DNA of 64,000 nucleotides from an uncultured Flavobacteriaceae bacterium (GCA_964351845.1 CAYGQJ010000013.1:7182-71181); one strand, 5' to 3'; positions 12,811 to 61,902 are shown, numbered from the stretch's first letter. A program made the numbers and translations. The notes: a model not told the origin generated them from the sequence alone.

Positions 12811-12860
12811 CGCTTTCACGTAAGTGAAGTTTATACTGAGCCCGTCGAAGTACGAAAGCG
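12811..12860. repeat. Palindrome-A-like hairpin interrupted by a family C element
   Basis: CGCTTTC...GAAAGCG arms enclosing AGTTTATACTGAGCCCGTCGAAGT (12828-12851). Confidence 0.7.
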
Positions 12861-18391: not shown

Positions 18392-18452
18392 CGCTCCTGC
18401 CTGCCGGCGAGGCAGGTTTGAGAAATGGTATGCTGAGCCTGTCGAAGTAGCG
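18392..18452. repeat. Degenerate palindrome A carrying a B insert in one arm and a C insert in the other
   Basis: CGCT|CCTGCCTGCCGGCGAGGCAGG|TTTGAGAA|ATGGTATGCTGAGCCTGTCGAAGT|AGCG. Confidence 0.8.
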
Positions 18453-32740: not shown

Positions 32741-33635
32741 TCAAATCACCATACCCTCCATAGACGTCAATCACGCTGTTGCGTTTTATAAAAAACTAGG
32801 ACTCCTACTCATTGTATACGTGCCTGAGCAATACGCTCGTTTTGAATGCCCCGATGGTGACAGTACGTTTTCTATCCATAAAGTAGACGAATTATCGTCT
32901 GGAGAGGGCGTCATTGTCTATTTTGAAATAGAAGAGCTTGACAAAAAAGTAGCCGAATTACAAGATCTTCACGGAGATACGATTCATTTTGACCTACTTC
33001 CTACAGACCAGTCATGGTTATGGAGAGAAGCCCGACTCAAAGACCCGGACGGGAATCAGCTTATTTTATTCCATGCAGGAGATAACAGGAAGAATCCGCC
33101 TTGGCGAATTAAAAGTGAAACTACAGAAGATTCTCGCCTTCGCGAGAATGAAAGTGAATCTTTTGAAATAGAACGTAAATTTTTACTCACCTCAGATGCT
33201 TTCAAAAAAGAAGCAAAGACCGCAACACGCATTACACAAGGATATCTCAGTATAGCCCCTGAACGCACGGTGCGTATTCGCACAAAAGGAGACAAAGGGT
33301 TTCTCACGATAAAAGGAAAATCAAATGAGAGCGGTACCACGCGTGTTGAAGTGGAGGAAGAGATCGCTTTCGCGAAAGCGGAAACACTTCTCAAACTCTG
33401 CCTTCCCGGGATCATAGATAAAACCCGATACGAAGTTATTATCGGAAAACACACCTGGGAAATCGACGAATTTTACGGAGAAAATGCTGGACTCCTACTC
33501 GCCGAAATAGAACTCTCCCAAGAGAATGAATTTTTTCAAAAACCCTCTTGGATTGGAAAAGAAGTTACTGGAAATAAAAAATACTATAATTCTTATCTTA
33601 GTACACATCCTTTCAAAGGTTGGGACGAAGAATAA
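32730..33635 (+). CDS. VOC family domain fused to a CYTH (triphosphate tunnel metalloenzyme) domain
   Basis: N-terminal MNLNQITIP...WLWREARLKDPDGNQLILF; C-terminal EIERKFL, ITQGYL, RTVRIR, LTIKG, KTRY, WEIDEFYG, LAEIEL, YYNSYL. Confidence 0.85.
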   Translation: MNLNQITIPSIDVNHAVAFYKKLGLLLIVYVPEQYARFECPDGDSTFSIHKVDELSSGEGVIVYFEIEELDKKVAELQDLHGDTIHFDLLPTDQSWLWREARLKDPDGNQLILFHAGDNRKNPPWRIKSETTEDSRLRENESESFEIERKFLLTSDAFKKEAKTATRITQGYLSIAPERTVRIRTKGDKGFLTIKGKSNESGTTRVEVEEEIAFAKAETLLKLCLPGIIDKTRYEVIIGKHTWEIDEFYGENAGLLLAEIELSQENEFFQKPSWIGKEVTGNKKYYNSYLSTHPFKGWDEE

Positions 33636-34964: not shown

Positions 34965-35429
34965 TCAGACCCCTTTCAATAATCGTTTATCAAAAACAAT
35001 AGGAAGTTCATCCACAATCTTAACCTTAGAAAAATCAGGATGCTTTGGATTTATAAGAATATTATCATCTATGGGATTAATCGCCGAGGGAACGCTAAGG
35101 CATAAAAACTCAGCCTTCGCTACAAATTGATCTCCAATATCTAAAACAGTAGGATGTTCTGTTCTATGTATCCAATCTTCTGGCAAGTCCTCTAGAGCAA
35201 TACGACCCATGGTCATCGTCTTAGGAAATTCCAGTACGATAATTTTTAAATCTTTAGGAAATACATACACAGGAATATGCACTAATTTCTCAAGCATCGC
35301 CAGCGAACTATTTCCCGCTGTATAAAGCACCGAAGTCCCTTTACGGTTCCATCTTCCCCCATAAAGACGAGCCCCTTCGCCAGAGAGGTCTTTGGCATAG
35401 GTATCTTTGGCTATTCTATATACTCGCAT
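34965..35429 (-). CDS. RES domain toxin (NAD+ phosphorylase family)
   Basis: MRVYRIAK..Y..DLSGEGARLYGGRWN..G..VLYTA.NSSLAMLE.LVH, VPSAI, NILINPKHPDF. Confidence 0.92.
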   Translation of the reverse strand: MRVYRIAKDTYAKDLSGEGARLYGGRWNRKGTSVLYTAGNSSLAMLEKLVHIPVYVFPKDLKIIVLEFPKTMTMGRIALEDLPEDWIHRTEHPTVLDIGDQFVAKAEFLCLSVPSAINPIDDNILINPKHPDFSKVKIVDELPIVFDKRLLKGV

Positions 35430-35431
35430 AC

Positions 35432-35932
35432 TTATACGACGATACCATGAGCCATTCTATCTAATAAGATCTCTACAGAATCTATCCCGTAGGTGGTATC
35501 AAGCATAGACAACGGAGTTTGATTTTCAAAGGCGTAATTTGGGATACTTAACCATTTTCTAAACCCTTCTTTACTCCCAAAAAAATCCCATCCTTTTTCA
35601 AAGAGAATAGACACTTCAAGAATACGTTCTGTTTGAGGCGTAGATAATCGTTTTTTATCCTTGTGGATGCGCTCTAAGGTACGCTCAGAAATATGAAGTA
35701 ATTGTGCTAGCTCTTGTTTTGAAAAATCAAAAGCCTCTACAGCCAATAAAAATTTTGGATACGATAATCCTTCTCTAGAAACGTGAACTAATCGTAGCGT
35801 AGAACGATCTCCTACAGGGGTGTCACGCATAATAACTGCGGGTTCTGAAACTCCAGAAATATCAATATCACTCCCTGAAACTAAGTTTTGAACTAGGTTT
35901 CCAGATGTATTATAGGCCGTATCGTCACTCAT
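35432..35932 (-). CDS. Xre/MbcA/ParS antitoxin
   Basis: HTH (FSKQELAQLLHISERTLER), C-terminal WL..PN.AF..QTPLSMLDTTYGIDSV..LL.RMAHG; directly upstream of the RES toxin. Confidence 0.9.
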   Translation of the reverse strand: MSDDTAYNTSGNLVQNLVSGSDIDISGVSEPAVIMRDTPVGDRSTLRLVHVSREGLSYPKFLLAVEAFDFSKQELAQLLHISERTLERIHKDKKRLSTPQTERILEVSILFEKGWDFFGSKEGFRKWLSIPNYAFENQTPLSMLDTTYGIDSVEILLDRMAHGIVV

Positions 35933-38361: not shown

Positions 38362-38391
38362 CTTGAATTTATGTTTATTTTTCTTGTTTTT

Positions 38392-38574
38392 ACCCCTTCC
38401 GTCAATAGCGCCGCTCTCGCTTCACTATTGCCACCTTCCCTGCCAGGGGAAGGAGCTCATGAGATAGTTATCTTTTAAACTTGGTGGAAATCTATTTGAT
38501 TTTCACCCCTTTTTAAGGCTCTCCTCCTTGAAAGGGAGGAGTGGCATTCGCCCAAGCGAATGACGAGGTGGGTC
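38392..38574. repeat. Family F hairpin pair (F1 forward 38392-38456, F2 reverse 38515-38574) downstream of DUF559
   Basis: ACCCCTTCCGTC-[hairpin]-GCCACCTTCCC..GGGGAAGGAGC and an inverted relative; repeated at 39017-39201. Confidence 0.88.
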
Positions 38575-38585
38575 AACCATCATCT

Positions 38586-38975
38586 TCATACCTCACATTC
38601 CTCATCTCCCAAAAAATGATCCTCAATATCCTTCAAAACACTCGGTAGCAAATTAAAAACCATCTTATTCTCAAACCGAATTACCGTTAACCCCTTGGAT
38701 GCCAGAAACTGTGTTCGTTTCTCATCTTTTTCTTGAGCCGTTGGATTCATATGAGGTTGCCCGTCTAATTCTATGACTAACTTCTCCGAAGCACAATAAA
38801 AATCAACGATATACTTCCCAACCCCATGCTGTCTTCTAAATTTTCTCCCCGCTAATTTTCGTTCTTTCAAATGATTCCACAAAAACGCCTCCGCTGATGT
38901 CAACCCATTACGCAATGATTTTCTAAAACCTTTCGTGTATTCCGGATCGTGGAGTTTTGGCTTTTTACTTCTCAA
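38586..38975 (-). CDS. DUF559 (Vsr-like) endonuclease domain protein
   Basis: RKSLRNGLTSAEAFLWNHLK..KLAGRKFRRQH.VGKYIVDFYC...KLVIELDG..H...DEKRT.FL...GLTVIRFEN. Confidence 0.92.
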   Translation of the reverse strand: MRSKKPKLHDPEYTKGFRKSLRNGLTSAEAFLWNHLKERKLAGRKFRRQHGVGKYIVDFYCASEKLVIELDGQPHMNPTAQEKDEKRTQFLASKGLTVIRFENKMVFNLLPSVLKDIEDHFLGDEECEV

Positions 38976-39016
38976 AATTGTGTTTTTTGTATTTCCTATT
39001 ATATTCTACTATTTTC

Positions 39017-39201
39017 ACCCCTTCCGTCAATAGTACCGCTCTCGCTCTACTATTGCCACCTTCCCCTGCTAGGGGAAGGAGCACTTACTAACTTTATTTT
39101 TTTTACAAGAGAAGCTATTTGTTTCTATACTTACTTTTTAAAAGCTCCCCTCATTGAAAGGGAGGAGTGGCATTTGCCAAAGGCAAATGACGGGGTGGGT
39201 C
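39017..39201. repeat. Family F hairpin pair (F1 39017-39082, F2 39141-39201) upstream of DUF559
   Basis: Near-identical direct repeat of the two elements at 38392-38574, with stem-preserving changes. Confidence 0.88.
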
Positions 39202-48224: not shown

Positions 48225-48453
48225 GCCGGGGCTTCAGTACAATTTTTAGGATTGCTTTTAGCAATTATAAAAATCACTCAGCCACCTTTGATCCGTTTTT
48301 AATATGTGCTTTCGCGAAAATCACTTAGCCGCCTTATATTTTGTTTTAAAGTCGGCATTTCGATACATTTTGCTTCAATAGAAAAAGAATCAAAGGACAT
48401 TGAGTGATTTCAGAGTTCTGAAAAAGAACTCTGAAATAGTACCGAAATGCCGG
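48225..48453. repeat. X/Y mosaic (BIME/REPIN-like) unit 1
   Basis: X GGGGCTTCAGTAC..ATCACTCAGCCACC (48225-48287), partial A+X (48308-48333), Y GGACATTGAGTGA..GTACCGAAATGCCGG (48395-48453). Confidence 0.88.
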
Positions 48454-48458
48454 GTTCT

Positions 48459-49952
48459 TTACTCCACCACCTCAAAGGCTTGAATCGCGGCATTAGGCTC
48501 CATAATGGTATAGCCTGTCCAAAACGTAGGATCGTATTTTGATAAATAAGTCGCTTCTACGTTTTCATTTTCTGAAGCCGCTTCATAGGCGGTACTTGAA
48601 ATATCTTCTGAGTTAAAAATAACCATCTCATATTTAGACAAAGACGTTCCTTGCATATCGATGTTCAGCGAAAGCTCATTTTGCTTACGACGGCCTTTGA
48701 CAAATTTGTTTTTTTCGATCACTTTTAACGGGCGATCGATGCCAAAATAGTTTCCATTTTCTAACTCCAAATACCGCGGACTATAACTTCCACTGGCATT
48801 TTTAGCAAATAGCATTTTTCCTCTGTAGACATTTTCACCGTACTTAATCCCTAATAACCCAAAGGTAAATAGCGGACGCACATTGTCAAATTCTAAGCGT
48901 ACAATGGCAAAATCATCGATGTTGACAAATGCGGTTCCTTTAAAGTCTTTTTTGCCTTTGGGCGAAAAGTCAATAATATACACTGGCTCCTCATCGATAA
49001 ACGTATAATCTCTGATTTCAAACTCATACCGATTCGATTTTGTGAGGATATCAATCTTAGAATCTTCATTAAAAAAAAGTTGGGTGTACAGTTCGGAAAT
49101 ACGATTTTTAATCTGTTCTTGGAAGTCTTGATTATTGGCATTTTCGACCTCTACCTTTACTTTATTGGCATCTTCATTGGCCGCAGTAATAGAGTCTAAT
49201 TGTACTTTGGTTCCAAAAAGTCCCGACTTAATTTTAAGGTAGGAATTAGGTTTTACATTTTCTTTAAAAATGGTTTCCAGGCGTTCACTGAGTCCGTCGA
49301 CAGAGACATCTTTGGACTTATCATACAGCTCGGCTGCTTTATCTACATATAGCTTATGCTTATTGTAATTCCCATAAAAATCACCGACGGCTTCGCGATA
49401 ATAGGAAGATTCACGCGGGACAAGCGTTGCAATGCTATCAATCAATTCTTTGTCAAGCTCTTCTATTGTTGATTTTTTAAAGGCGAAATCTACTTTTTTC
49501 ATCGCATTAAAATCCGACTGCCTAAAGAAAATTTTCTTTTTAGATAATTCTTGAACATCGTAGTTTTTATACATATTTTCTTTGACTTTCTCAATCACTT
49601 CTTTGGCAGAAAGCGGATTGCTAGAAAGAAAAACACCTTTCAGCTCGAATGATTTTGGCGAAAGCCGCACCAGACTATCTGTAAGGGAGGCTACCCAAAT
49701 TCCTTTACGTTCATACCCCATGGATGAGATATACACAGAGTCTTGTATTTTTTTAAGTTGGTCAGGATTGATGGTAAACATCCCATCTTCATTTGAAATC
49801 ACGCCTTGATTTTCTGAAAGTTCAATGGTCGCAAACGGAATCGGTTCTTGTGTTTTGTCATCAATAAGTCTGGCTGATACGGTTTGTGCGGTCATTCCTG
49901 ATACGAGGAATGCAGACAAGAGCATTAAAATGTATTTGATAAGTGTGGTCAT
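48459..49952 (-). CDS. Secreted protein with carboxypeptidase-like regulatory (D_2) N-terminal domain
   Basis: VSARLIDDKTQEPIPFATI...GVISNEDGMF...ISSMGY; YDPTFWTGYTIMEP C-terminus. Confidence 0.8.
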   Translation of the reverse strand: MTTLIKYILMLLSAFLVSGMTAQTVSARLIDDKTQEPIPFATIELSENQGVISNEDGMFTINPDQLKKIQDSVYISSMGYERKGIWVASLTDSLVRLSPKSFELKGVFLSSNPLSAKEVIEKVKENMYKNYDVQELSKKKIFFRQSDFNAMKKVDFAFKKSTIEELDKELIDSIATLVPRESSYYREAVGDFYGNYNKHKLYVDKAAELYDKSKDVSVDGLSERLETIFKENVKPNSYLKIKSGLFGTKVQLDSITAANEDANKVKVEVENANNQDFQEQIKNRISELYTQLFFNEDSKIDILTKSNRYEFEIRDYTFIDEEPVYIIDFSPKGKKDFKGTAFVNIDDFAIVRLEFDNVRPLFTFGLLGIKYGENVYRGKMLFAKNASGSYSPRYLELENGNYFGIDRPLKVIEKNKFVKGRRKQNELSLNIDMQGTSLSKYEMVIFNSEDISSTAYEAASENENVEATYLSKYDPTFWTGYTIMEPNAAIQAFEVVE

Positions 49953-50045
49953 GTGTGATTGTTTAGTAGTATAGACGCGTCATTTTCACAAAAGGTTGTC
50001 TCGCATCTTTTTTTATGACGATTTTATAGATGGAATGTTACTTAA

Positions 50046-50239
50046 GCCGGGGCTTCGGTACAATTTTTAGGATTGCTTTCAGCAATGATAAAAATCACTC
50101 AGCCGCCTTTGATTTGTTTTTGTTATATGCTTTCGCGAAAGCAAAAAATTACTCAGACGCCTAACATTACAACAAACACAGGACATTGAGTGATTTTAAA
50201 ATCCTGATAAAGGGTTTTGAAATAGTATCGAAATGTCGG
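50046..50239. repeat. X/Y mosaic unit 2 with an embedded palindrome A
   Basis: X 50046-50108, A 50129-50142, Y 50181-50239. Confidence 0.88.
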
Positions 50240-50253
50240 ATCAATAAGAAATA

Positions 50254-50412
50254 TCACTCTTCCTTTTGCTGTGCTTTGATTTTTTCTTTGAGGATTTTTA
50301 TACGGGCTTCATGAGCGTCTTTTTTCTCGCGCTCTTTCTTTTTCTTTTGTGCCATCAGCTTAGAATGCTTGGCTTTATTTTTTGTGTTTTTAGGACTTCC
50401 TGCTTTTGCCAT
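50254..50412 (-). CDS. Small basic protein (52 aa), not in the ORF track
   Basis: MAKAGSPKNTKNKAKHSKLMAQKKKKEREKKDAHEARIKILKEKIKAQQKEE*; TATCTTTG -7 box at 50417-50424. Confidence 0.7.
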   Translation of the reverse strand: MAKAGSPKNTKNKAKHSKLMAQKKKKEREKKDAHEARIKILKEKIKAQQKEE

Positions 50413-50437
50413 AAAGCAAAGATAGTGAAGATTAATT

Positions 50438-50562
50438 GGGGGCTTCGGTACAATTTCCGCTTACGCGAAAATCACTCAGCCGCCTAGCATTGTATCAAGG
50501 AGAGGACATTGAGTAATTTCAAAATCCTGAAAAAGGATTTTGAAATAGTATCGAAATGCCGG
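50438..50562. repeat. X/Y mosaic unit 3
   Basis: X with an A-like core (50438-50485), Y 50504-50562. Confidence 0.88.
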
Positions 50563-50610
50563 CATCATGGGTCCGCTTTAACGCTTTGCTCTCCCTTTTG
50601 GTCGTGAATC

Positions 50611-51213
50611 TCACAAGCTCGCTTTCGCGAAAGCGGTTTGCATCTCCTTAAATGCTTGCACAGGATCAGCTGCATTCCAAACGCCACCTAAGGCACCCAC
50701 GCCTTGAAAGCCTAGTTTGATCGCTTCTGGGGTAGTTTGTGCGTTGATACCGCCCATGCCTGCAATGAATTTTGGGATGTGACGTACATCAAAACCTCTG
50801 CCTTGCATCTCACTTTTGGAAATCGCTGCAAACACCGGACTTAGCAAATGATAGGCAAAATCAACGGACTGTGCGGCGAGGTCTTCAGGTTCGTGGTAGG
50901 AGCTACTGACCGAAAATTCATTGTCGGTGAAAGATTGAACATAGCTCGCCAACTGATCGCCTTGGGCTCTCCATTTACGTTCTTCCAGATGAATTCCTTT
51001 GATGGGAAACTCGGCCGTGAGTTCGTGATGGAAATTATGCGTCATAATATATTGATAATACTGCGGATCTACTTGATCCAAATAGGCACAGTGCGCTTCT
51101 AGCGTTGCCGCTGGTTTTCTAAAATGAAAATACTGCAAGCCCGCTTCAAAGAGTTGATGCAAGGTTTGAATTTCTGTAGCGCTGGTTTGTTCTGGTGATA
51201 TGAGTAGGATCAT
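50611..51213 (-). CDS. Thiamine phosphate synthase (ThiE/TenI) family protein
   Basis: LFEAGLQYFHFRKP, GIHL, SSSYH, LLSPVFAAISK, AGMGGI, GALGGVW; likelier start MILLISP at 51213. Confidence 0.82.
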   Translation of the reverse strand: MILLISPEQTSATEIQTLHQLFEAGLQYFHFRKPAATLEAHCAYLDQVDPQYYQYIMTHNFHHELTAEFPIKGIHLEERKWRAQGDQLASYVQSFTDNEFSVSSSYHEPEDLAAQSVDFAYHLLSPVFAAISKSEMQGRGFDVRHIPKFIAGMGGINAQTTPEAIKLGFQGVGALGGVWNAADPVQAFKEMQTAFAKASL

Positions 51214-51220
51214 AGTTTTT

Positions 51221-51494
51221 CTTTTCATTCCCTTGAATTTACCTACCGACAGGCAGGGATGGGAATCTCATCATAACGTAAAAGTACGGTTTAATCTACG
51301 TATGAGGAATTTGATTGGTTTTATACCGCTTATGATTCTTTTTAATTCCCGTGAAGACGGGAATCTAATTCTTTTTTTGATTACGTTTCAGAGCTTGAGA
51401 TTCCCGTAGTTATTTACTGATAAGCAGCTAGTAAAATAACATGAGATTCCCGCCGGAGTTTATGCTGAGCATAGTCGAAGTGCGGGAATGAAAG
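51221..51494. repeat. Cluster of family D (ATTCCC-N8-GGGAAT) hairpins, two with nested inserts
   Basis: 51227-51266 (with a 20-nt B insert), 51345-51364 (intact), half copy near 51397, 51446-51489 (with a C insert). Confidence 0.85.
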
Positions 51495-51499
51495 TATTA

Positions 51500-51796
51500 C
51501 TAACTAGAAGCAATCACCTGCTTCAACGCTTCTTTCTGTACCACCCCTGACTGTCGCCAGACTTGTTTTCCGTTTTTGAATAAGATCATGGTGGGGACAC
51601 CACGCACTTGATATTTGGTAGCTAAGGGTTGGTTTTTGTCAACGTCTATTTTGACGATTTTAACGGCATCCCCTAGTTCTTCTTTGACTTGTGTGAGGAT
51701 AGGGCCTAAGGTTTTACACGGCCCACACCAAGTCGCATAAAAGTCGACTAAAACAGGCGTTTCTGAGTTGATGATTTGGGAGAAAGAGGACTTCAT
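51500..51796 (-). CDS. trxA: Thioredoxin
   Basis: VLVDFYATWCGPCK, KIDVDKN, VRGVPT. Confidence 0.95.
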   Translation of the reverse strand: MKSSFSQIINSETPVLVDFYATWCGPCKTLGPILTQVKEELGDAVKIVKIDVDKNQPLATKYQVRGVPTMILFKNGKQVWRQSGVVQKEALKQVIASS

Positions 51797-51852
51797 TTTT
51801 ATTATTTACTATAAAGTTACGAAAAAAAGAAGCTATTGACTGAATCAAACGC

Positions 51853-51972
51853 GGGGCTTCGGTACAATTTTTAGGATTGCTTTCAGCAATTATAAAAATC
51901 ACTCAGCCGCCTTGCATTGTAACACAAAAGGACATTGAGTGACTCGCTGCAAGCGAGGTGTATCGAAATGAC
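51853..51972. repeat. X/Y mosaic unit 4
   Basis: X 51853-51912; Y with a short CTCGC-TGCAA-GCGAG core 51930-51972. Confidence 0.85.
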
Positions 51973-52142
51973 TGGCTCTAGTTTTCATGCTTCGAAAAAC
52001 AGGCTGCTGCAAAGTTTCTATATTGAGATCCCGCTATTCAGCGGGATTAGTTCAACTTACAAGGTTGAGTGCGTCTTTTCAGACTTCTCAACATTGAGTT
52101 TCACTAAAAATAGTATATTCAACATCGAAAATTAGAATCTCT

Positions 52143-52427
52143 ATGTCCAAAGAAAAATCTTGGAAACAACTCATTTTAGACCTCGCCAAGGCGATCTCTG
52201 AAAGCGTAACGGGTGCCTCACGAAAAAGAACTTGGCATCAACATGTGGTGCCGTATGAAGACGGTTGGGCAGTGCGCCGTGAAGGGAATAAACGGATTAC
52301 CTCTAAACATCGCAAACAAAGTACAGCCATTACCAAAGCGAAAGTGATCGCCAAAAGAAAGAAAGCGGATGTCATTATCCATCGAGCGAGTGGTGGGATT
52401 CGAGAGCGGATTGGTTATGGGGATTGA
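52143..52427 (+). CDS. DUF2188 domain-containing protein
   Basis: QHVVPYEDGWAVRREGNKR.....KQSTAI..AK.IAK.....V.IH...G.IRER..YG. Confidence 0.88.
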   Translation: MSKEKSWKQLILDLAKAISESVTGASRKRTWHQHVVPYEDGWAVRREGNKRITSKHRKQSTAITKAKVIAKRKKADVIIHRASGGIRERIGYGD

Positions 52428-52527
52428 GATGAGGGTTGTTTTTACGCTATTTTTTTAATGTGCTTCTACTGGGTTAGTCGTTTTTTGAAAGCTTCTTGTT
52501 GTTAGATATAAAAAATTAACTGAGGCT

Positions 52528-52577
52528 AGGCGTTTCTGATTTGATGATTTGGGAGAAAGAGGATTTCATTTTTTATT
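52528..52577 (-). pseudogene. Truncated duplicate of the trxA 5' end
   Basis: About 50-bp near-identical copy of 51755-51803; reads MKSSFSQIIKSETPSLS*. Confidence 0.75.
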
Positions 52578-52669
52578 GAATTTAGGGGGTAAATCTTACA
52601 TCGTGAAGATACACTTTTTTGCAAAGAATAGGCGTACAGGTTTCCGCAAAGGAGTTGCTGTGTAAGTGA

Positions 52670-53098
52670 TTACAGCAATTCTTCTTTACACATCAAACCT
52701 GGCATTTGTATTTTTTCTCCTTTAATAGTCGCAGAAGCGATGATATGCGCACAACTGTCTTTTATTTTCAGAATTTCTACATAGACAACCGTTTCTTTCA
52801 CAGACTCAATATCTACAAATTCTGGATCATTATAGCTAGACACATAATGCAACTCATAACTGCAATCACTCGTCCAGATAATGCTAACAATGACCTCAGA
52901 GACATTTCCATTAATGTCTACAATTTCTCGTTGCTCATCGCCTTGGCGTATAATCAAGGTTTCAAAAGATACATATTCATTCATAGGAACGACAAAGGAG
53001 CCTTCTTTAAAATCGGCGCAGGTCAATGCCTCTTGTGCCTGTAGGGCACTGACGACAAATAGCGTCATACAAAAACTAAAAAGGGTCTTCATTATCAT
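52670..53098 (-). CDS. Secreted hypothetical protein
   Basis: Signal peptide, C.DFKEGSF, I.WTSDCSYEL. Confidence 0.7.
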   Translation of the reverse strand: MIMKTLFSFCMTLFVVSALQAQEALTCADFKEGSFVVPMNEYVSFETLIIRQGDEQREIVDINGNVSEVIVSIIWTSDCSYELHYVSSYNDPEFVDIESVKETVVYVEILKIKDSCAHIIASATIKGEKIQMPGLMCKEELL

Positions 53099-53192
53099 TT
53101 TTTTTGTGAAGATACGAGAATTTGAAACTCTTGTGTCACAACATCGTCAAGTGCAATGACATCTCGTTTTTGTGTATGAGTGACAAAGACAT

Positions 53193-53474
53193 CCGGCATT
53201 TCGGTACAATTTATAAAGTGCTTTCAGCACTTTATAAATCACTCAATGTCCTAGCAGTGTTACAATGTAACAAACACACCCCTTAATCCCCTACTTCGAC
53301 AAGCTCAGCACAGCGTCTTTCTAGAGGGGAAACTCATACTTTAAATGTTTTAAAACTAAATGTAAGGTGGCTGAGTGATTTCGAAGCATGAGAAATAGTA
53401 TCGAAGCCACCGAGTCAAGAACTCAATGTAAGGTGGCTGCCTGTTTTGCTGAAAGCAAAAGGTACCGAAGCCCC
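53193..53474. repeat. Mosaic unit 5: inverted Y, an F hairpin with a C insert, two inverted X copies
   Basis: Y 53193-53251; CCCCT|24 nt|CTTTCTAGAGGGG 53288-53329; X 53365-53410 and 53430-53474. Confidence 0.85.
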
Positions 53475-53625
53475 AGTTTGGATGTTAAAAATCAGGCCTA
53501 TTGTTGCAAAAAGAATCATTTTACTATCAATTTTACGGTATCCCCACATATTATACATAATAATGGGCAGTCACGGTATCTAGTTAGAGATAAAATAGTT
53601 ATATTTCCGTTCCCAAATTAGCCTG

Positions 53626-56756: not shown

Positions 56757-58481
56757 TTAATGTCCACTTGCTTCTCCAGCACCGCTTGGAATTCTAATGG
56801 TTTCTACGATTTCTTGTACCTCGGCTGGTGGCGATGGTGTAAAACGATGTACGATAAGAGCAACCACAAAATTAACGGCCATGGCAACGCTTCCAAAGCC
56901 TTCTGGGGAAATCCCAAACCACCAATCCTTTTGAAGGCCTGCAACGGCTTCTTTACCTCCATCAAAAACCCCAAACTTAAACTTAAGTATGTAAAAAATC
57001 ATGAGTGTAATCCCGACAATCATCCCTGTGACTGCCCCTTCTTTATTCATTTTTTTATAAAAAATTCCTAATACAATGGCGGGAAAGAAAGAGGCGGCGG
57101 CAAGGCCAAAAGCCAATGCTACGACTGCGGCGACAAATCCTGGCGGATCAATCCCAAAGTAGCCTGCAATGACCACCGCTACGGTAGCTGCGCCACGGGC
57201 AATCCATAATTCTTGTTTGTCGGTAATATCAGGTTTAAAGGTTTTTTTGACAAGGTCATGCGATACCGATGATGAGATCACCAGTAATAATCCTGCAGCG
57301 GTTGATAATGCGGCGGCAAGTCCGCCAGCGGCGACTAAGGCAATGACCCAGGCAGGAAGGTTGGCGATTTCAGGATTTGCCAGCACCATAATGTCGCGAT
57401 CTACGGTGAGTTCATTAGCAGGGTGTCCATTTTCCGCTTTCGCGAAAGCGGTATACTGCACCTTTCCATCTCCATTTTTATCTTCAAAAGTAATTAAGCC
57501 TGTCGTTTCCCATTTGGTGAACCATTCGGGCATTTCTGAATAGGGTTGATCACTTACGGTGGTGATCATATTAGTACGCGCAAACACTGCTACGGCAGGG
57601 GCTGTCGTGTATAAAACAGCAATCAACAACAAGGCAATTCCCGCCGATTTACGTGCATCTCTTACGCGTTTTACCGTAAAAAATCGAACGATCACATGGG
57701 GTAATCCTGCCGTTCCTACCATCAATGCTAGGGTGATCATAAACACATCTATCTTTGACTTAGAACCGCTCGTATAGTCAGCAAAACCAAGGTCTTGTGA
57801 GAGGCCATTGAGCTTGTCTAAAAGGTAGGTGCCATCTTCTACGGTACTTCCCATCCCTAGCTGCGGAATCGGATTTCCCGTCATCTGAATGGATATAAAA
57901 ATAGCCGGTACCATAAAGGCAAAAATAAGCACGCAGTATTGTGCAACTTGGGTATAGGTAATGCCTTTCATACCGCCTAATACGGCATAAAACAGCACGA
58001 TAATCATTCCGATGATCACTCCTGTATTGATATCAACTTCTAAAAAGCGTGAGAATACGAGACCCACGCCTCGCATCTGCCCAGCGACATAGGTAAACGA
58101 CACCAACAATGCACAGCATACAGCCACAATTCTTGCCGTTTTTGAGTAATACCGATCGCCTATAAAATCAGGGACGGTAAACTTACCGAACTTCCTGAGA
58201 TAGGGCGCTAATAATAAAGCGAGAAGCACATAGCCTCCAGTCCATCCCATGAGATACACAGAGCCATCATAGCCTCCAAAAGAGATAATCCCTGCCATGG
58301 AGATAAAGGAAGCGGCACTCATCCAATCGGCAGCGGTAGCCATGCCATTTGCCCAAGGAGAAACGCCTCCGCCGGCGACATAAAATTCTTTGGTGGATCC
58401 AGCGCGGGACCAAATGGCAATACCAATATAAAGGGCAAAGGTGATGCCTACGAGTATGTATGTCCAAGTTTGTACAGTCAT
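56757..58481 (-). CDS. Sodium:solute symporter (ActP-like monocarboxylate permease)
   Basis: ANGMATAADWMSAASF, GWTGGY, FTVPDFIGDRY, GTAGLPHVIVRFFTV, AAALSTAAGLL. Confidence 0.93.
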   Translation of the reverse strand: MTVQTWTYILVGITFALYIGIAIWSRAGSTKEFYVAGGGVSPWANGMATAADWMSAASFISMAGIISFGGYDGSVYLMGWTGGYVLLALLLAPYLRKFGKFTVPDFIGDRYYSKTARIVAVCCALLVSFTYVAGQMRGVGLVFSRFLEVDINTGVIIGMIIVLFYAVLGGMKGITYTQVAQYCVLIFAFMVPAIFISIQMTGNPIPQLGMGSTVEDGTYLLDKLNGLSQDLGFADYTSGSKSKIDVFMITLALMVGTAGLPHVIVRFFTVKRVRDARKSAGIALLLIAVLYTTAPAVAVFARTNMITTVSDQPYSEMPEWFTKWETTGLITFEDKNGDGKVQYTAFAKAENGHPANELTVDRDIMVLANPEIANLPAWVIALVAAGGLAAALSTAAGLLLVISSSVSHDLVKKTFKPDITDKQELWIARGAATVAVVIAGYFGIDPPGFVAAVVALAFGLAAASFFPAIVLGIFYKKMNKEGAVTGMIVGITLMIFYILKFKFGVFDGGKEAVAGLQKDWWFGISPEGFGSVAMAVNFVVALIVHRFTPSPPAEVQEIVETIRIPSGAGEASGH

Positions 58482-60795: not shown

Positions 60796-61902
60796 TTAGG
60801 AATGCACAATCGTTTCAAAAGTTCCGGGTAGGGCTACTTCGAGGAATTCTAGATCTTTGGAGCTGTGTGTAAATTGATAGTTCATACCGGGCGGAATAAC
60901 AAACGCATCGCCTTCGGTAAGGTGTTGTATGTCTTGACCTTCGGCGGCTAGTCGCATAGATCCTGAGAGCATAAAACTAAACAGAATATCTGTCGTATGA
61001 CTTACAACAGGGCTTTCTTGCAGTGTCTGAGTAGGTTTTATAACATGCACTGCGGCATCACCTTGGGTGGCACTGTGGATACCGCTTTCGCGAAAGCGGA
61101 AACCTGCGACACGCCAATCTTTCCAAACAGCATCTTTGACTTGATGATGACAGAAACGCTGCCCTTGAAAAAGTCGGTCGGGGCGATAGGTGTTTGTAGG
61201 GAGTTCTAGATCGTGATCTATGGTGGTCATATGCTCGGCAGGGACTCCAATCTCTATCACTTCCAAATGATCTGAGGCTTCGAGTACGCGGTGGCGTATT
61301 TCGGGAGGCTGGGTCACACAATCACCTGCATGTAATATAAAGGGAGGGCCTTGGTCTTCATAGACCAATTTTACCCAACCGCGTTTGCAAAAAATGAGTT
61401 GAAATCCGATGGTATGGTAATGCACCATATCGGGTACGGGGCCGCCTTCAGGTATACTGATATGTGAGGCAATGATGCTCCCACCCAATCTATCAGGAAT
61501 GAGATCGCGATATAGCATCCCCGCACGGCCAATCACCCATGAGGATGCTTCGGATAATTTACGAACTTCAAAGTGATGCTGGGTGCTTGGAGTGACCAGT
61601 GTATGGGTTCTGGGTAGTACCTGAATTACTGTCCCATTAGGTGCAATAAGTTCTTTTTTTCCGTGTGCAATAGTTTCTGGTATGTCTGTAATGATATTAA
61701 TCACCGGCGGCGGACTTGTTACACGTTTGTCTAAGACAAGGTGCATCCCAAATCCTGAGAGCATGGCTACCGCAGGATGATCTGCAGGAAATATTTTATC
61801 CAATCGAAATCCTAGTTGGATGAAAAAATCCATATCAGCCGTGAGGTCTTCTGAGGGTAAACGCAGTTGTGCGTAGGATGAAGTGGGATGGTATGTGCTC
61901 AT
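60796..61902 (-). CDS. VOC-like + double cupin domain protein
   Basis: N-terminal VOC-like segment; GPVPDMVHYHTIGFQLIFCKRGWV...HAGDCVTQPPEIRHRV; second cupin GDAFVIPPG. Confidence 0.8.
   Translation of the reverse strand: MSTYHPTSSYAQLRLPSEDLTADMDFFIQLGFRLDKIFPADHPAVAMLSGFGMHLVLDKRVTSPPPVINIITDIPETIAHGKKELIAPNGTVIQVLPRTHTLVTPSTQHHFEVRKLSEASSWVIGRAGMLYRDLIPDRLGGSIIASHISIPEGGPVPDMVHYHTIGFQLIFCKRGWVKLVYEDQGPPFILHAGDCVTQPPEIRHRVLEASDHLEVIEIGVPAEHMTTIDHDLELPTNTYRPDRLFQGQRFCHHQVKDAVWKDWRVAGFRFRESGIHSATQGDAAVHVIKPTQTLQESPVVSHTTDILFSFMLSGSMRLAAEGQDIQHLTEGDAFVIPPGMNYQFTHSSKDLEFLEVALPGTFETIVHS

Follow-up and report, generated by a model that had tools for sequence, protein, structure and literature searches.

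The window, i.e., the whole 64-kb stretch of DNA analysed here, carries intergenic hairpin repeats of two types, X and Y, among genes that include those for a PhoD, a CarboxypepD_reg-like and a thioredoxin protein. Eleven full copies have been confirmed by a covariance model and three fragments were identified by eye, together spanning 48227-53475. The covariance model was trained on 31 copies from many genera, and the whole window was scanned with the filters off. Its 11 matches have E values from 7e-13 to 2e-3 and span 48229-53475; nothing else appeared in the 64 kb at E ≤ 1. In addition, we have found nine exact matches to the pattern TGAGTRA-N(8-38)-GTAYCGAA, where 0.01 would be expected, and all of them are located within 48.4–53.4 kb. 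The copies, with coordinates running from P1 to P1', followed by two short-form members, are as below.

48227-48286, minus strand: X-type long-form copy, P1 GGTGGC / GCCCC, second box GTACTGAA with one mismatch; 22 bits in the covariance model; DNA fold -12.1 kcal/mol, z -5.9; its tail is 3 nt past the PhoD stop codon
48306-48333, minus strand: fragment with the 5' strand of P1, a TAAGTGA box and a palindrome-A-like core, without the second box
48349-48372, minus strand: Y-type fragment, 3' half only, GTATCGAA-ATGCCGAC
48395-48452, plus strand: Y-type long-form copy, GGACAT / ATGCC, core TTTCAGAGTTCT...AGAACTCTGAAA; DNA fold -13.5 kcal/mol, z -7.1; ~6 nt separate its tail from the stop codon of the CarboxypepD_reg-like gene on the minus strand
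50048-50107, minus strand: X-type long-form copy, GGCGGC / GCCCC
50121-50163, minus strand: fragment, GGCGTC-TGAGTAA followed by a palindrome-A core, without the second box
50181-50238, plus strand: Y-type long-form copy with two G:T pairs within P2
50438-50484, minus strand: X-type long-form copy with a short P2, TTTTCGC-GTAA-GCGGAAA; 40.5 bits
50504-50561, plus strand: Y-type long-form copy, first box TGAGTAA
51852-51911, minus strand: X-type long-form copy upstream of the thioredoxin gene, head-to-head with the next copy at a distance of 18 nt
51930-51973, plus strand: Y-type long-form copy with a short P2, CTCGCT-GCA-AGCGAG; 57.9 bits
53194-53251, minus strand: Y-type long-form copy; DNA fold -13.2 kcal/mol, z -7.4
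53366-53411, plus strand: X-type long-form copy with a perfect P1, GGTGGC / GCCACC; 44.4 bits
53432-53475, plus strand: degenerate X-type copy, first box TGCCTGT instead of TGAGTGA, second box and P1' intact; 24.2 bits
51460-51485, plus strand: short-form member TGAG-CATAGT-CGAA, nested in the dRS3-like stem of element C (51446-51489)
53289-53313, minus strand: short-form member TGAG-CTTGT-CGAA, whose 13-nt string is among the commonest beside GIY-YIG genes in other taxa

The original prediction had described five intergenic clusters within ~5.3 kb, arranged as inverted pairs around exchangeable self-complementary cores. All five clusters are indeed intergenic, and each of them is head-to-head, (-)(+). 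Both consensus strings occur in the window as given, i.e., GGCGGC-TGAG-TGAT[core]GTA-CCGAA-GCCCC for X and GGACAT-TGAG-TGA[core]GTA-TCGAA-ATGCC for Y, and so do all five of the listed cores (e.g., CTCGC..GCGAG and TTTTGCT..AGCAAAA). Within a unit the order is the P1 stem, TGAGTGA, a variable P2 hairpin, GTAYCGAA and P1'. P1 has 6 bp, frequently with a bulge at the third base, and the conserved parts are AAAGG-N4-TGAGTGA and GTAYCGAA-N3-4-CC. It had also been claimed that X, Y and element C belong to one superfamily with a stem-TGAG...CGAA-stem skeleton, which agrees with our observation that in other taxa this skeleton is the short form of the repeat. Within this superfamily of DNA hairpin repeats, X and Y represent the long form. 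The part that stays constant is the junction, made up of the closing stem P1 plus TGAG (5' side) and CGAA (3' side). TGAG and CGAA could pair with each other as T:A, tandem G.A/A.G and G:C. The apical part varies freely, being either a loop of 5-6 nt (short form) or T(G)A-[P2 hairpin]-GTAY (long form).

The structure of the repeats is under selection while the sequence is free, as had been anticipated, since P1 and P2 covary strongly among the 31 copies. Actually, 91.3% of cells are paired in these copies, against 71.9% in shuffles, and double changes are seen at 10 of the 13 pairs. The covariation score is 0.596, compared with 0.225 for shuffles and 0.10-0.19 for slid partners. In one copy the T7:A38 pair has become C:G, with both sides changed, and in one orthologous copy the loop is flipped. 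The cores may be swapped or regenerated by template switching, as the original prediction had it; they never occur outside the elements. That the length of P2 does not matter fits with recognition of the folded form.

As DNA, the window copies fold into a two-helix hairpin, with z-scores down to -7.4. The strand carrying TGAGTGA is the better-folding one: folding of the sense strand gives the more stable structure in 205 of 232 copies. Among 100 core families, 74 G:T events were counted against 26 A:C events. Overall, one strand is under selection. GNRA-like loops are frequent in the repeats; these loops and the G:T asymmetry are compatible with RNA as much as with single-stranded DNA.

Nearly all copies, 240 of 246, lie between genes, and the genes that separate copies are syntenic housekeeping genes. 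The mosaic layout likened to BIMEs in the original prediction is seen here too, with alternating orientation and typed linkers: in relatives, head-to-head pairs account for 32 of 49 adjacent pairs, direct pairs for 12 and tail-to-tail pairs for 5. Most spacers in head-to-head pairs measure 18-33 nt and most linkers in direct pairs 14-19 nt, and their sequences recur. The tail of a copy points toward a gene start in 119 cases and toward a gene stop in 101, 41 of the latter lying no more than 30 nt from the stop. That is, the repeats have no orientation bias relative to genes and are not oriented by transcripts. Copies have been both gained and lost between species, as the copy content at orthologous gaps varies. 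The elements have no more than 1.5-3x the contig depth of their flanks, indicating a low copy number. The Y-type pattern was matched at four loci in D. ponticola, and in the Dokdonia copies a T-rich run (CCTTTGATTTTTT) follows the complementary strand.

The original prediction had proposed a search for a nuclease gene flanked by X/Y, and in the relatives such a gene does exist, though it encodes a GIY-YIG protein and not a RAYT. This protein forms the largest ORF family within 400 nt of the repeats, with 14 loci in at least 6 genera of Flavobacteriaceae. By tblastn, long-form repeats lie within 250 nt of the stand-alone GIY-YIG gene in all 13 Flavobacteriaceae genomes with the gene. The gene encodes ~96 aa and sits directly between hairpins in 13 genomes of Flavobacteriaceae; in three relatives from Dokdonia (L029, L030 and L034) it is found inside the cluster equivalent to that of the window, in the thioredoxin-DUF2188 gap. 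The partner proteins have 95-102 aa, match the Pfam GIY-YIG domain with E values of 1e-17 to 1e-20, and keep the invariant Tyr, Tyr-x-Gly, Arg, His and Glu positions in the nuclease alignment.

The association extends far beyond this family. We have picked 80 homologous loci by protein similarity alone, covering Bacteroidota, Chloroflexota, Ignavibacteriota, Spirochaetota, Calditrichia and Proteobacteria. Stem-TGAG..CGAA-stem hairpins lie within 300 nt of the gene in 72 of the 80 loci, and on both sides of it in 45. They reach 6.7/kb near the gene and 0.22/kb at distances above 600 nt, and shuffling the window gives ~0.05/kb. The nearest downstream hairpin has a median distance of 19 nt from the nuclease stop codon. 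How the flanking copies are oriented relative to the gene varies between taxa (upstream 26 plus and 26 minus, downstream 32 minus and 21 plus). Across phyla the gene retains 60-70% identity, and it turns up in odd locations, e.g., between cas1 and cas2 in Parvicella. Other GIY-YIG paralogues of Flavobacteriaceae (L104 and L122) have different, dRS3-like flanking hairpins. The 64-kb window itself contains no GIY-YIG gene; a ~83% identical homologue of similar depth is present in a metagenome that holds the strain of the window, and is not assignable to that strain. Guilt by association in the sequences suggests a functional link between nuclease and repeat.

The closest known system is Ssn/NTS. 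SsnA is a single-domain GIY-YIG nuclease of 94 aa that cuts beside its own hairpin repeat (Chenal et al., Nat Commun 2025, PMC11893778). It binds and cuts the repeat only as single-stranded DNA and on one strand only, not as RNA or double-stranded DNA, the identity of the loop is dispensable and loop extensions are tolerated, and the ssnA gene is flanked by its repeats (PMC11893778). In our case, the partner is likewise a single-domain GIY-YIG protein of ~95 aa with its gene bracketed by its own hairpin repeats, in relatives rather than in the window. The repeats are also oriented, with non-palindromic conserved parts and clustering around certain genes, the apical loop is variable with possible extensions, and one strand is apparently the relevant one. 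On the other hand, X/Y are unrelated to the Ssn repeats in sequence and more complex: a conserved TGAG...CGAA junction connects their two helices, while a simple hairpin, CGTC-ATTCCCGC...GCGGGAAT-CYRG, makes up NTS. They number tens per genome, compared with hundreds for Ssn repeats. The SRM consensus HGTCWYN(0-2)YYVSBRHN(0-5)WNVSBRGN(0-2)RNCYNB was found within 300 nt of the gene in 0 of the 80 loci, and not once in the window.

The enzymes may differ as well. Ssn nucleases belong to CDD cd10448 and lie within E<1e-10 of N. meningitidis SsnA (PMC11893778). The nearest solved relatives of the X/Y partner are UPF0213 proteins, namely BH0048 (PDB 1zg2, E 3e-13) and EF2693 (PDB 1ywl, E 2e-10). 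The partner clade may lie inside UPF0213 or beside it, and its enzyme could therefore represent a sister family that differs in activity. The UPF0213 proteins are stand-alone GIY-YIG domains too, with a size similar to that of the partner nuclease. Another member is YhbQ of E. coli; we are not aware that UPF0213 proteins have been described as associated with repeats or as site-specific.

Since a tiny GIY-YIG gene is bracketed by the repeats in relatives, an Ssn-like way of working seems most likely compared with classical REP/BIME elements or RNAs. By analogy, X/Y are probably the cognate single-stranded DNA hairpin sites of an Ssn-like GIY-YIG nuclease, orphaned in the window.

Could the repeats act as RNA instead, as terminators, stabilisers of mRNA 3' ends or small RNAs, in cis and independently of the nuclease? 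The covarying stems, the GNRA-like loops and the one-strand excess of G:U-type pairs would suit such elements. As a U-rich tract follows the complementary strand and 41 of the 101 stop-facing tails are close to a stop, a head-to-head pair would act as a back-to-back terminator. The tract, however, follows the other strand and not the better-folding one, orientation bias relative to genes is absent, and a simple terminator scan showed no enrichment and did not call the elements. The window has no Rfam match at gathering thresholds, and no family is matched even at E ≤ 10, where only chance-level C/D snoRNA-like matches appear. Moreover, an RNA reading leaves unexplained both the invariance of the TGAG/CGAA junction across phyla and the tracking of the nuclease gene, and the family of the partner acts on single-stranded DNA, not RNA (PMC11893778). 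We therefore regard the RNA-centred part of the original prediction as unlikely, though the Dokdonia copies may have an added or alternative role as terminators, judging from their T-rich run.

It is less plausible still that the hairpins are regulatory or insulating parts, such as the own terminator and operator, of a mobile GIY-YIG cassette, with the other copies being decayed footprints and not substrates. Copies do hug the start and the stop of the GIY-YIG gene, the similarity of this gene across phyla and its odd placement would suit a mobile cassette, and the window array exists without the gene. But intact, covarying arrays with maintained stem selection persist far from any nuclease gene, and the cores differ between copies, so these are not simple footprints of one cassette. 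The Ssn precedent, in which the enzyme recognises the repeat directly (PMC11893778), also speaks against this reading.

There is very little chance that X/Y are REP/BIME or REPIN elements of the classical kind, which a RAYT, i.e., an HUH-Y1 transposase, produces and mobilises. The likeness lies in short imperfect intergenic palindromes with alternating orientation and characteristic linkers, in the variable copy content at orthologous gaps, and in the REPtron layout, where an enzyme gene is flanked by inverted copies and a folded single strand is presumed to be recognised. 'Atypical' REPs without GTAG have been reported with the RAYT subclass 2.6 of Bacteroidetes (PMC6006769), but the listed ones, including one from a Flavobacteriaceae genome, are unlike the X/Y motif. 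The hairpin foot of X/Y lacks the tetranucleotide GT[AG]G (or CGTC), and their conserved part is the internal junction rather than a 5' foot. A six-frame regular-expression scan of limited sensitivity, covering 1.55 Mb of repeat-bearing loci, gave no ORF with an HUH...Y motif, and a Pfam scan of 28 window ORFs gave no Y1_Tnp domain. The copies are also few (11 in 64 kb, all within 5.3 kb) where REPs are dispersed in hundreds per genome, and the recurrent neighbour is the GIY-YIG gene.

It is equally hard to credit that X/Y belong to a conventional DDE transposon as its MITEs, or serve a tyrosine recombinase as attC-like sites: the head-to-head dimer has inverted ends, and one comparison of a filled site (L031) with an empty one (L037) gave a border direct repeat of 12-14 nt, AAAAATAGTATA, but the window clusters show no consistent target-site duplication, and the recurrent neighbours include no transposase or integrase. 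With attC sites X/Y share apparent recognition as a folded single strand, structure kept while sequence is free, and the architecture, in which a basal stem containing extrahelical bases is followed by an unpaired spacer, another stem and a variable terminal structure whose length differs widely; they differ in the lack of an R/L box consensus (GTTRRRY/RYYYAAC not found by inspection), of an integrase and of a cassette array, in having copies in both orientations, and in having syntenic housekeeping genes, not cassettes, between copies. Overall, structural selection, the mosaic and the superfamily stand from the original interpretation, while REP/REPIN membership and the RNA-centred reading are not supported.

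Returning to the orphaned nuclease sites, the hairpin would form on the TGAGTGA strand only, in single-stranded DNA, and would be the cognate site of the stand-alone GIY-YIG nuclease of ~96 aa; hairpins of this kind typically flank the nuclease gene on both sides. Taking SsnA/NTS as a model, we infer that the enzyme would bind the folded strand and cut the single-stranded DNA nearby in a strand-specific way. As to the mode of spread, the repeats would build up in the surroundings of the nuclease gene and in a small number of further intergenic places, where they make BIME-like head-to-head pairs and arrays. With the nuclease gene gone from the window, the array there would be an orphan, and the gene has probably been lost via recombination between repeat copies.

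At 48.2-53.5 kb of the window, copies of a single element fill five intergenic gaps of unusual length. The genes set apart by these gaps encode a PhoD-like phosphatase, a CarboxypepD_reg-domain protein, a 52-aa lysine-rich ORF, a TENI-like protein, a thioredoxin, a DUF2188 protein, a 142-aa ORF and a hybrid histidine kinase. Against an expectation of 0.01, the window has 9 exact matches to the pattern TGAGTRA-N(8-38)-GTAYCGAA. In addition, a covariance model based on 31 copies from a range of genera has found 11 copies, every one at 48229-53475, when all 64 kb were searched with filters off, and no other match at E<=1; 3 additional repeat fragments were recognised by eye. Each copy is laid out as (AAUC)AAA, GG-N4 (5' strand of the stem P1), TGAGTGA, the hairpin P2, GTAYCGAA, N3-4-CC (3' strand of P1) and G-A-n-T-T. 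P1 has 6 bp, with base 3 often bulged or mismatched (e.g., GGACAT/ATG-CC and GGCGGC/GCC-CC); it is perfect in some copies (GGTGGC/GCCACC and GGTCAT/ATGACC). P2 varies from 5 to ~17 bp, is unrelated in sequence among copies and is frequently capped by GAAA, GTAA, GCAA or GGAA. The repeats occur in two forms. The short one consists of P1 and a TGAG-N5-6-CGAA loop, e.g., GGTGGCTGAGGCTCTCGAAGCCACC, and the long one, the X/Y type, has the boxes TGAGT(G)A and GTAYCGAA around P2. Four short-form copies are in the window, one of them within element C (a dRS3-like stem, 51446-51489). On re-check, the X and Y strings, the five variable P2 cores and the inverted pairing of the original prediction are all correct, and its view of X, Y and element C as one superfamily is borne out by this short-form copy.

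X/Y copies have 1.5-3 times the depth of the flanking contig, that is, a modest copy number, unlike palindrome A and the GATCCCGC...GCGGGAT hairpin at 5-60 times. Palindrome A (CGCTTTCGCGAAAGCG) is an element in its own right, dispersed and of high copy number: the window has at least 10 copies, and 1.55 Mb of related loci contain ~100 sites. It never occurs with the X/Y boxes, though some X cores resemble it (TTTTCGCGAAAGCGAAAA). The cores are never found outside X/Y elements, so that they cannot be taken as independent mobile palindromes. Examples of palindrome A in the window are:

33360-33385, palindrome A
50615-50640, palindrome A
57430-57455, palindrome A
61078-61103, palindrome A

Some other features of the window were also recorded. 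Several 39-54 nt blocks, 74-91% identical and with a repeat spacing of ~626 nt, lie at 38387-39182 within a 1.16 kb gap upstream of an 1865-aa ORF; at 34965-35932, on the minus strand, a RES-domain toxin is directly paired with an Xre/MbcA/ParS-type antitoxin. The stretch 52528-52573 is a lone 46-nt copy, 96% identical to 51755-51800 (5' end of the thioredoxin gene), in the next gap, and appears to be left over from a rearrangement or from a paralogue since lost.

The claim that the structure is under selection has held. Among 31 equal-length copies, 91.3% of the cells are paired (71.9% in shuffles), double changes occur at 10 of the 13 pairs, and the covariation score is 0.596, compared with 0.225 for shuffled copies and 0.10-0.19 with the 3' partners slid. 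In one copy T7:A38 is changed to C:G, which supports a T:A pair closing a possible tandem G.A/A.G step (TGAG over CGAA). A DNA energy model favours pairing of G10-T11-G12 with T32-A33-Y34, and the window copies modelled as single-stranded DNA form a two-helix hairpin with z-scores down to -7.4. In DNA, tandem G.A steps of the type 5'-Y-GA-R-3' and loops of the d(GCGAAGC)/d(GCGAAAGC) type show notable stability, in keeping with a hairpin made of DNA.

The two strands are not equivalent. On the TGAGTGA strand, G:T pairs outnumber A:C pairs by 57 to 11 in P2 and by 29 to 5 in P1 (74 to 26 with each core family and position counted once), and this strand is the better folder in 205 of 232 copies. 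On the other hand, 240 of 246 elements are intergenic and their orientation towards the neighbouring genes shows no preference (119 vs 101). Selection of one strand without a tie to the direction of transcription points to folded single-stranded DNA.

Readings at the RNA level fare less well. In Dokdonia, a T-run CCTTTGATTTTTT follows the opposite strand of the copies, so a head-to-head pair, that is, adjacent (-)(+) copies, could double as a back-to-back terminator; this reading was set aside, as a simple scan for the terminator consensus gave no enrichment (6 found vs 5.0 expected) and did not call the X/Y elements. No Rfam family matches the elements of the window, where snoRNA matches are at chance level only. 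Reasoning from the box sequences, we also rejected a k-turn or C/D-box-like motif, hammerhead, sarcin-ricin/loop-E, T-loop and group II intron domain V, whose box order and spacing misfit.

The partner of the repeats was found by clustering all ORFs within 400 nt of any element at 167 loci. The largest ORF family near the elements is a 95-102 aa protein at 14 loci in at least 6 genera, which matches Pfam GIY-YIG (E 1e-17 to 1e-20) and has the UPF0213 proteins BH0048 and EF2693 as its best solved relatives. By tblastn, the gene is present in 13 genomes of the set; each of them has long-form elements at a distance of up to 250 nt from it, in most cases on either side. The original prediction had suggested a search for a RAYT (the HUH-Y1 transposase of REP/BIME/REPIN), GIY-YIG or other nuclease gene bracketed by the repeats; the GIY-YIG part stands, while motif scans of the repeat-bearing loci (1.55 Mb; regular expressions of limited sensitivity) found no RAYT. 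A phage homing endonuclease does not explain the family, as just 7 weak relatives (30-43% identity) exist in 2.9 million viral contigs, from which the nuclease clade is nearly absent.

Three Dokdonia genomes have the gene between thioredoxin and DUF2188, in the same cluster as in the window, with the tail of one element 3-26 nt from the stop codon and that of another ~25-30 nt upstream of the start. By tblastn, it is absent from this locus in the window and in the window's closest relative, and neither a GIY-YIG nor a Y1 transposase domain was found by Pfam among the 28 window ORFs scanned. A contig ~83% identical to the nuclease, which may belong to the window's strain or to another organism, occurs at similar depth in a metagenome that contains this strain. 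In Dokdonia isolate 746 a whole head-to-head dimer is present as a direct repeat on each side of the gene, so recombination between the copies would delete it, and the window has probably lost its nuclease gene in this way.

The copies turn over among sister species. The nearest relative is D. ponticola (95% protein identity in the CarboxypepD_reg-like gene). Gene order around the cluster is kept in seven Dokdonia genomes, while the elements found in a given gap vary in number, type and core. The thioredoxin-DUF2188 gap of D. pacifica is 60 nt and element-free; compared with this empty site, the locus L031 of another genome is a filled site with a head-to-head pair and its flanks; a direct repeat of 12-14 nt (AAAAATAGTATA) borders them, and D. 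pacifica has one copy of this sequence. Metagenome contigs over the region gave repeat-induced assembly joints only, and no excision or insertion variants could be accepted from them. Against its D. ponticola orthologue, the Y copy at 48395-48452 has an identical stem and an inverted loop (GAAAA vs TTTTC), as expected for a palindrome flip by recombination or template switching between arms. In a Psychroflexus MAG (L139, 540-810), a full element is nested in P2 of another, and an opposite-orientation short-form unit lies between GTAC and TACCGAA, so that each side of it has a copy of TAC; both cases hint at elements inserting into elements.

The Y-type pattern is almost confined to Dokdonia. 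Among the matches listed, the general pattern occurs in the Flavobacteriaceae genera Aequorivita, Marixanthomonas, Psychroflexus, Patiriisocius, Rasiella, Ulvibacter and Leeuwenhoekiella, and also in Ignavibacteria and Melioribacter. P1 is characteristic for each genome and the two boxes are constant. A link to neighbour genes was rejected, as thioredoxin, DUF2188 and others do not recur beside the repeats in other genera.

The GIY-YIG family is strongly conserved (1814 matches, 65-75% identity across phyla), with a homologue in at least 589 of 185,579 species genomes scanned. From these, 80 loci were picked on protein similarity alone, spanning Bacteroidota, Chloroflexota, Ignavibacteriota, Calditrichia, Spirochaetota, Fibrobacterales and Proteobacteria. 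At a distance of up to 300 nt from the gene, 72 of the 80 loci carry stem-TGAG...CGAA-stem hairpins, and 45 carry them on both sides; the density of these hairpins is 6.7/kb near the gene, compared with 0.22/kb beyond 600 nt and ~0.05/kb in window shuffles. Clear single examples are a Chloroflexi contig, Parvicella and Chryseobacterium. In a type II CRISPR-Cas locus of Parvicella tangerina (L172, 2715-3600), the gene and its hairpin arrays separate cas1 from cas2, which looks like an insertion into an operon. Loops identical or near-identical to those beside GIY-YIG genes in other phyla are found in two window units remote from the cluster, with weak closing stems:

12831-12855, short-form TGAG-CCNGT-CGAA unit
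18428-18452, short-form TGAG-CCNGT-CGAA unit

Two known systems invite comparison. Of the BIME/REPIN frame originally proposed, the mosaic layout stands: of 49 adjacent pairs, 32 are head-to-head, with spacers mostly of 18-33 nt, and direct neighbours have linkers mostly of 14-19 nt with recurring sequence, so that head-to-head dominance and typed linkers are the BIME-like aspect. Membership in REP/RAYT fails on its defining features, as the elements lack a GTAG tag, the motif scans gave no RAYT and the copies are few; the REPs listed for the Bacteroidetes RAYT subclass 2.6 are unrelated to the X/Y motif.

The Ssn/NTS system is closer. SsnA of N. meningitidis is a 94-aa single-domain GIY-YIG protein that binds and cuts beside the NTS hairpin repeat solely as single-stranded DNA, on one strand, and not as RNA or double-stranded DNA; its gene is flanked by NTS repeats in an IS-like layout, the loop identity of NTS is dispensable and loop extensions can be added (Chenal et al. 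2025, PMC11893778). The logic of a single-domain GIY-YIG gene with its own hairpin repeats is the same here, but the repeat differs: the published SRM search pattern (PMC11893778) matches at 0 of 80 loci and nowhere in the window. The present enzyme may belong to a sister branch of Ssn. Two other GIY-YIG paralogues of Flavobacteriaceae (L104, 3481-3723; L122, 3398-3667) have flanking hairpins of a different, dRS3-like kind, which the window contains as well:

51227-51266, dRS3/NTS-like hairpin
51345-51364, dRS3/NTS-like hairpin
51446-51489, dRS3/NTS-like hairpin (element C)
52028-52047, dRS3/NTS-like hairpin

ATTCCC-N8-GGGAAT is an exact fit to the definition of the Neisseria dRS3 repeat, and in one metagenome the contig depth of the hairpin GAGATCCCGC...GCGGGATTAG is as high as ~560x. 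These hairpins and paralogues suggest a second nuclease/repeat pair, and several such pairs seem to coexist in these genomes.

Overall, X/Y most likely represents an Ssn-type nuclease/hairpin-repeat system with a different repeat, of which the window array would be an orphaned part. We propose that, when the DNA becomes single-stranded, the TGAGTGA strand would fold; the nuclease would recognise the P1/junction module, i.e., the GG...CC stem base, the bulged third base and the TGAG/CGAA step, would tolerate P2 as an apical extension, and would then cut near the hairpin. The association, the structure, the strand bias and the turnover of copies are shown by the data above; the single-stranded state, the binding, the cleavage and the mode of copy multiplication are put forward here as a working model. 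A wider reading is tentative, and we consider it rather doubtful: TGAG/CGAA-junction hairpins and the ~96-aa GIY-YIG gene might constitute an unrecognised, phylum-hopping, IS-like family, in which a stand-alone GIY-YIG nuclease acting on folded single-stranded DNA, not an HUH or DDE enzyme, would seed and maintain BIME-like arrays. The X/Y arrays of the window would then be non-autonomous or orphaned progeny, and the enzyme a site-specific single-stranded DNA nuclease with a new, structure-defined specificity.

The X/Y finding is real and goes beyond a curiosity. It gives a concrete, testable partner to intergenic mosaic repeats in Flavobacteriaceae and beyond that are unannotated and have no Rfam match. 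The idea of 2025 that a tiny GIY-YIG enzyme has its own hairpin repeat (Ssn) is extended to a repeat built quite differently, and probably also to another branch of the stand-alone GIY-YIG proteins. If the enzyme cuts single-stranded DNA at junction hairpins, it would offer a new specificity class for single-stranded DNA tools. For genome biology, the nuclease/repeat system explains the large size of the gaps at this locus, the copy content that differs between sister species, and the way in which genes could be deleted by recombination between copies, as apparently happened here to the nuclease gene itself.
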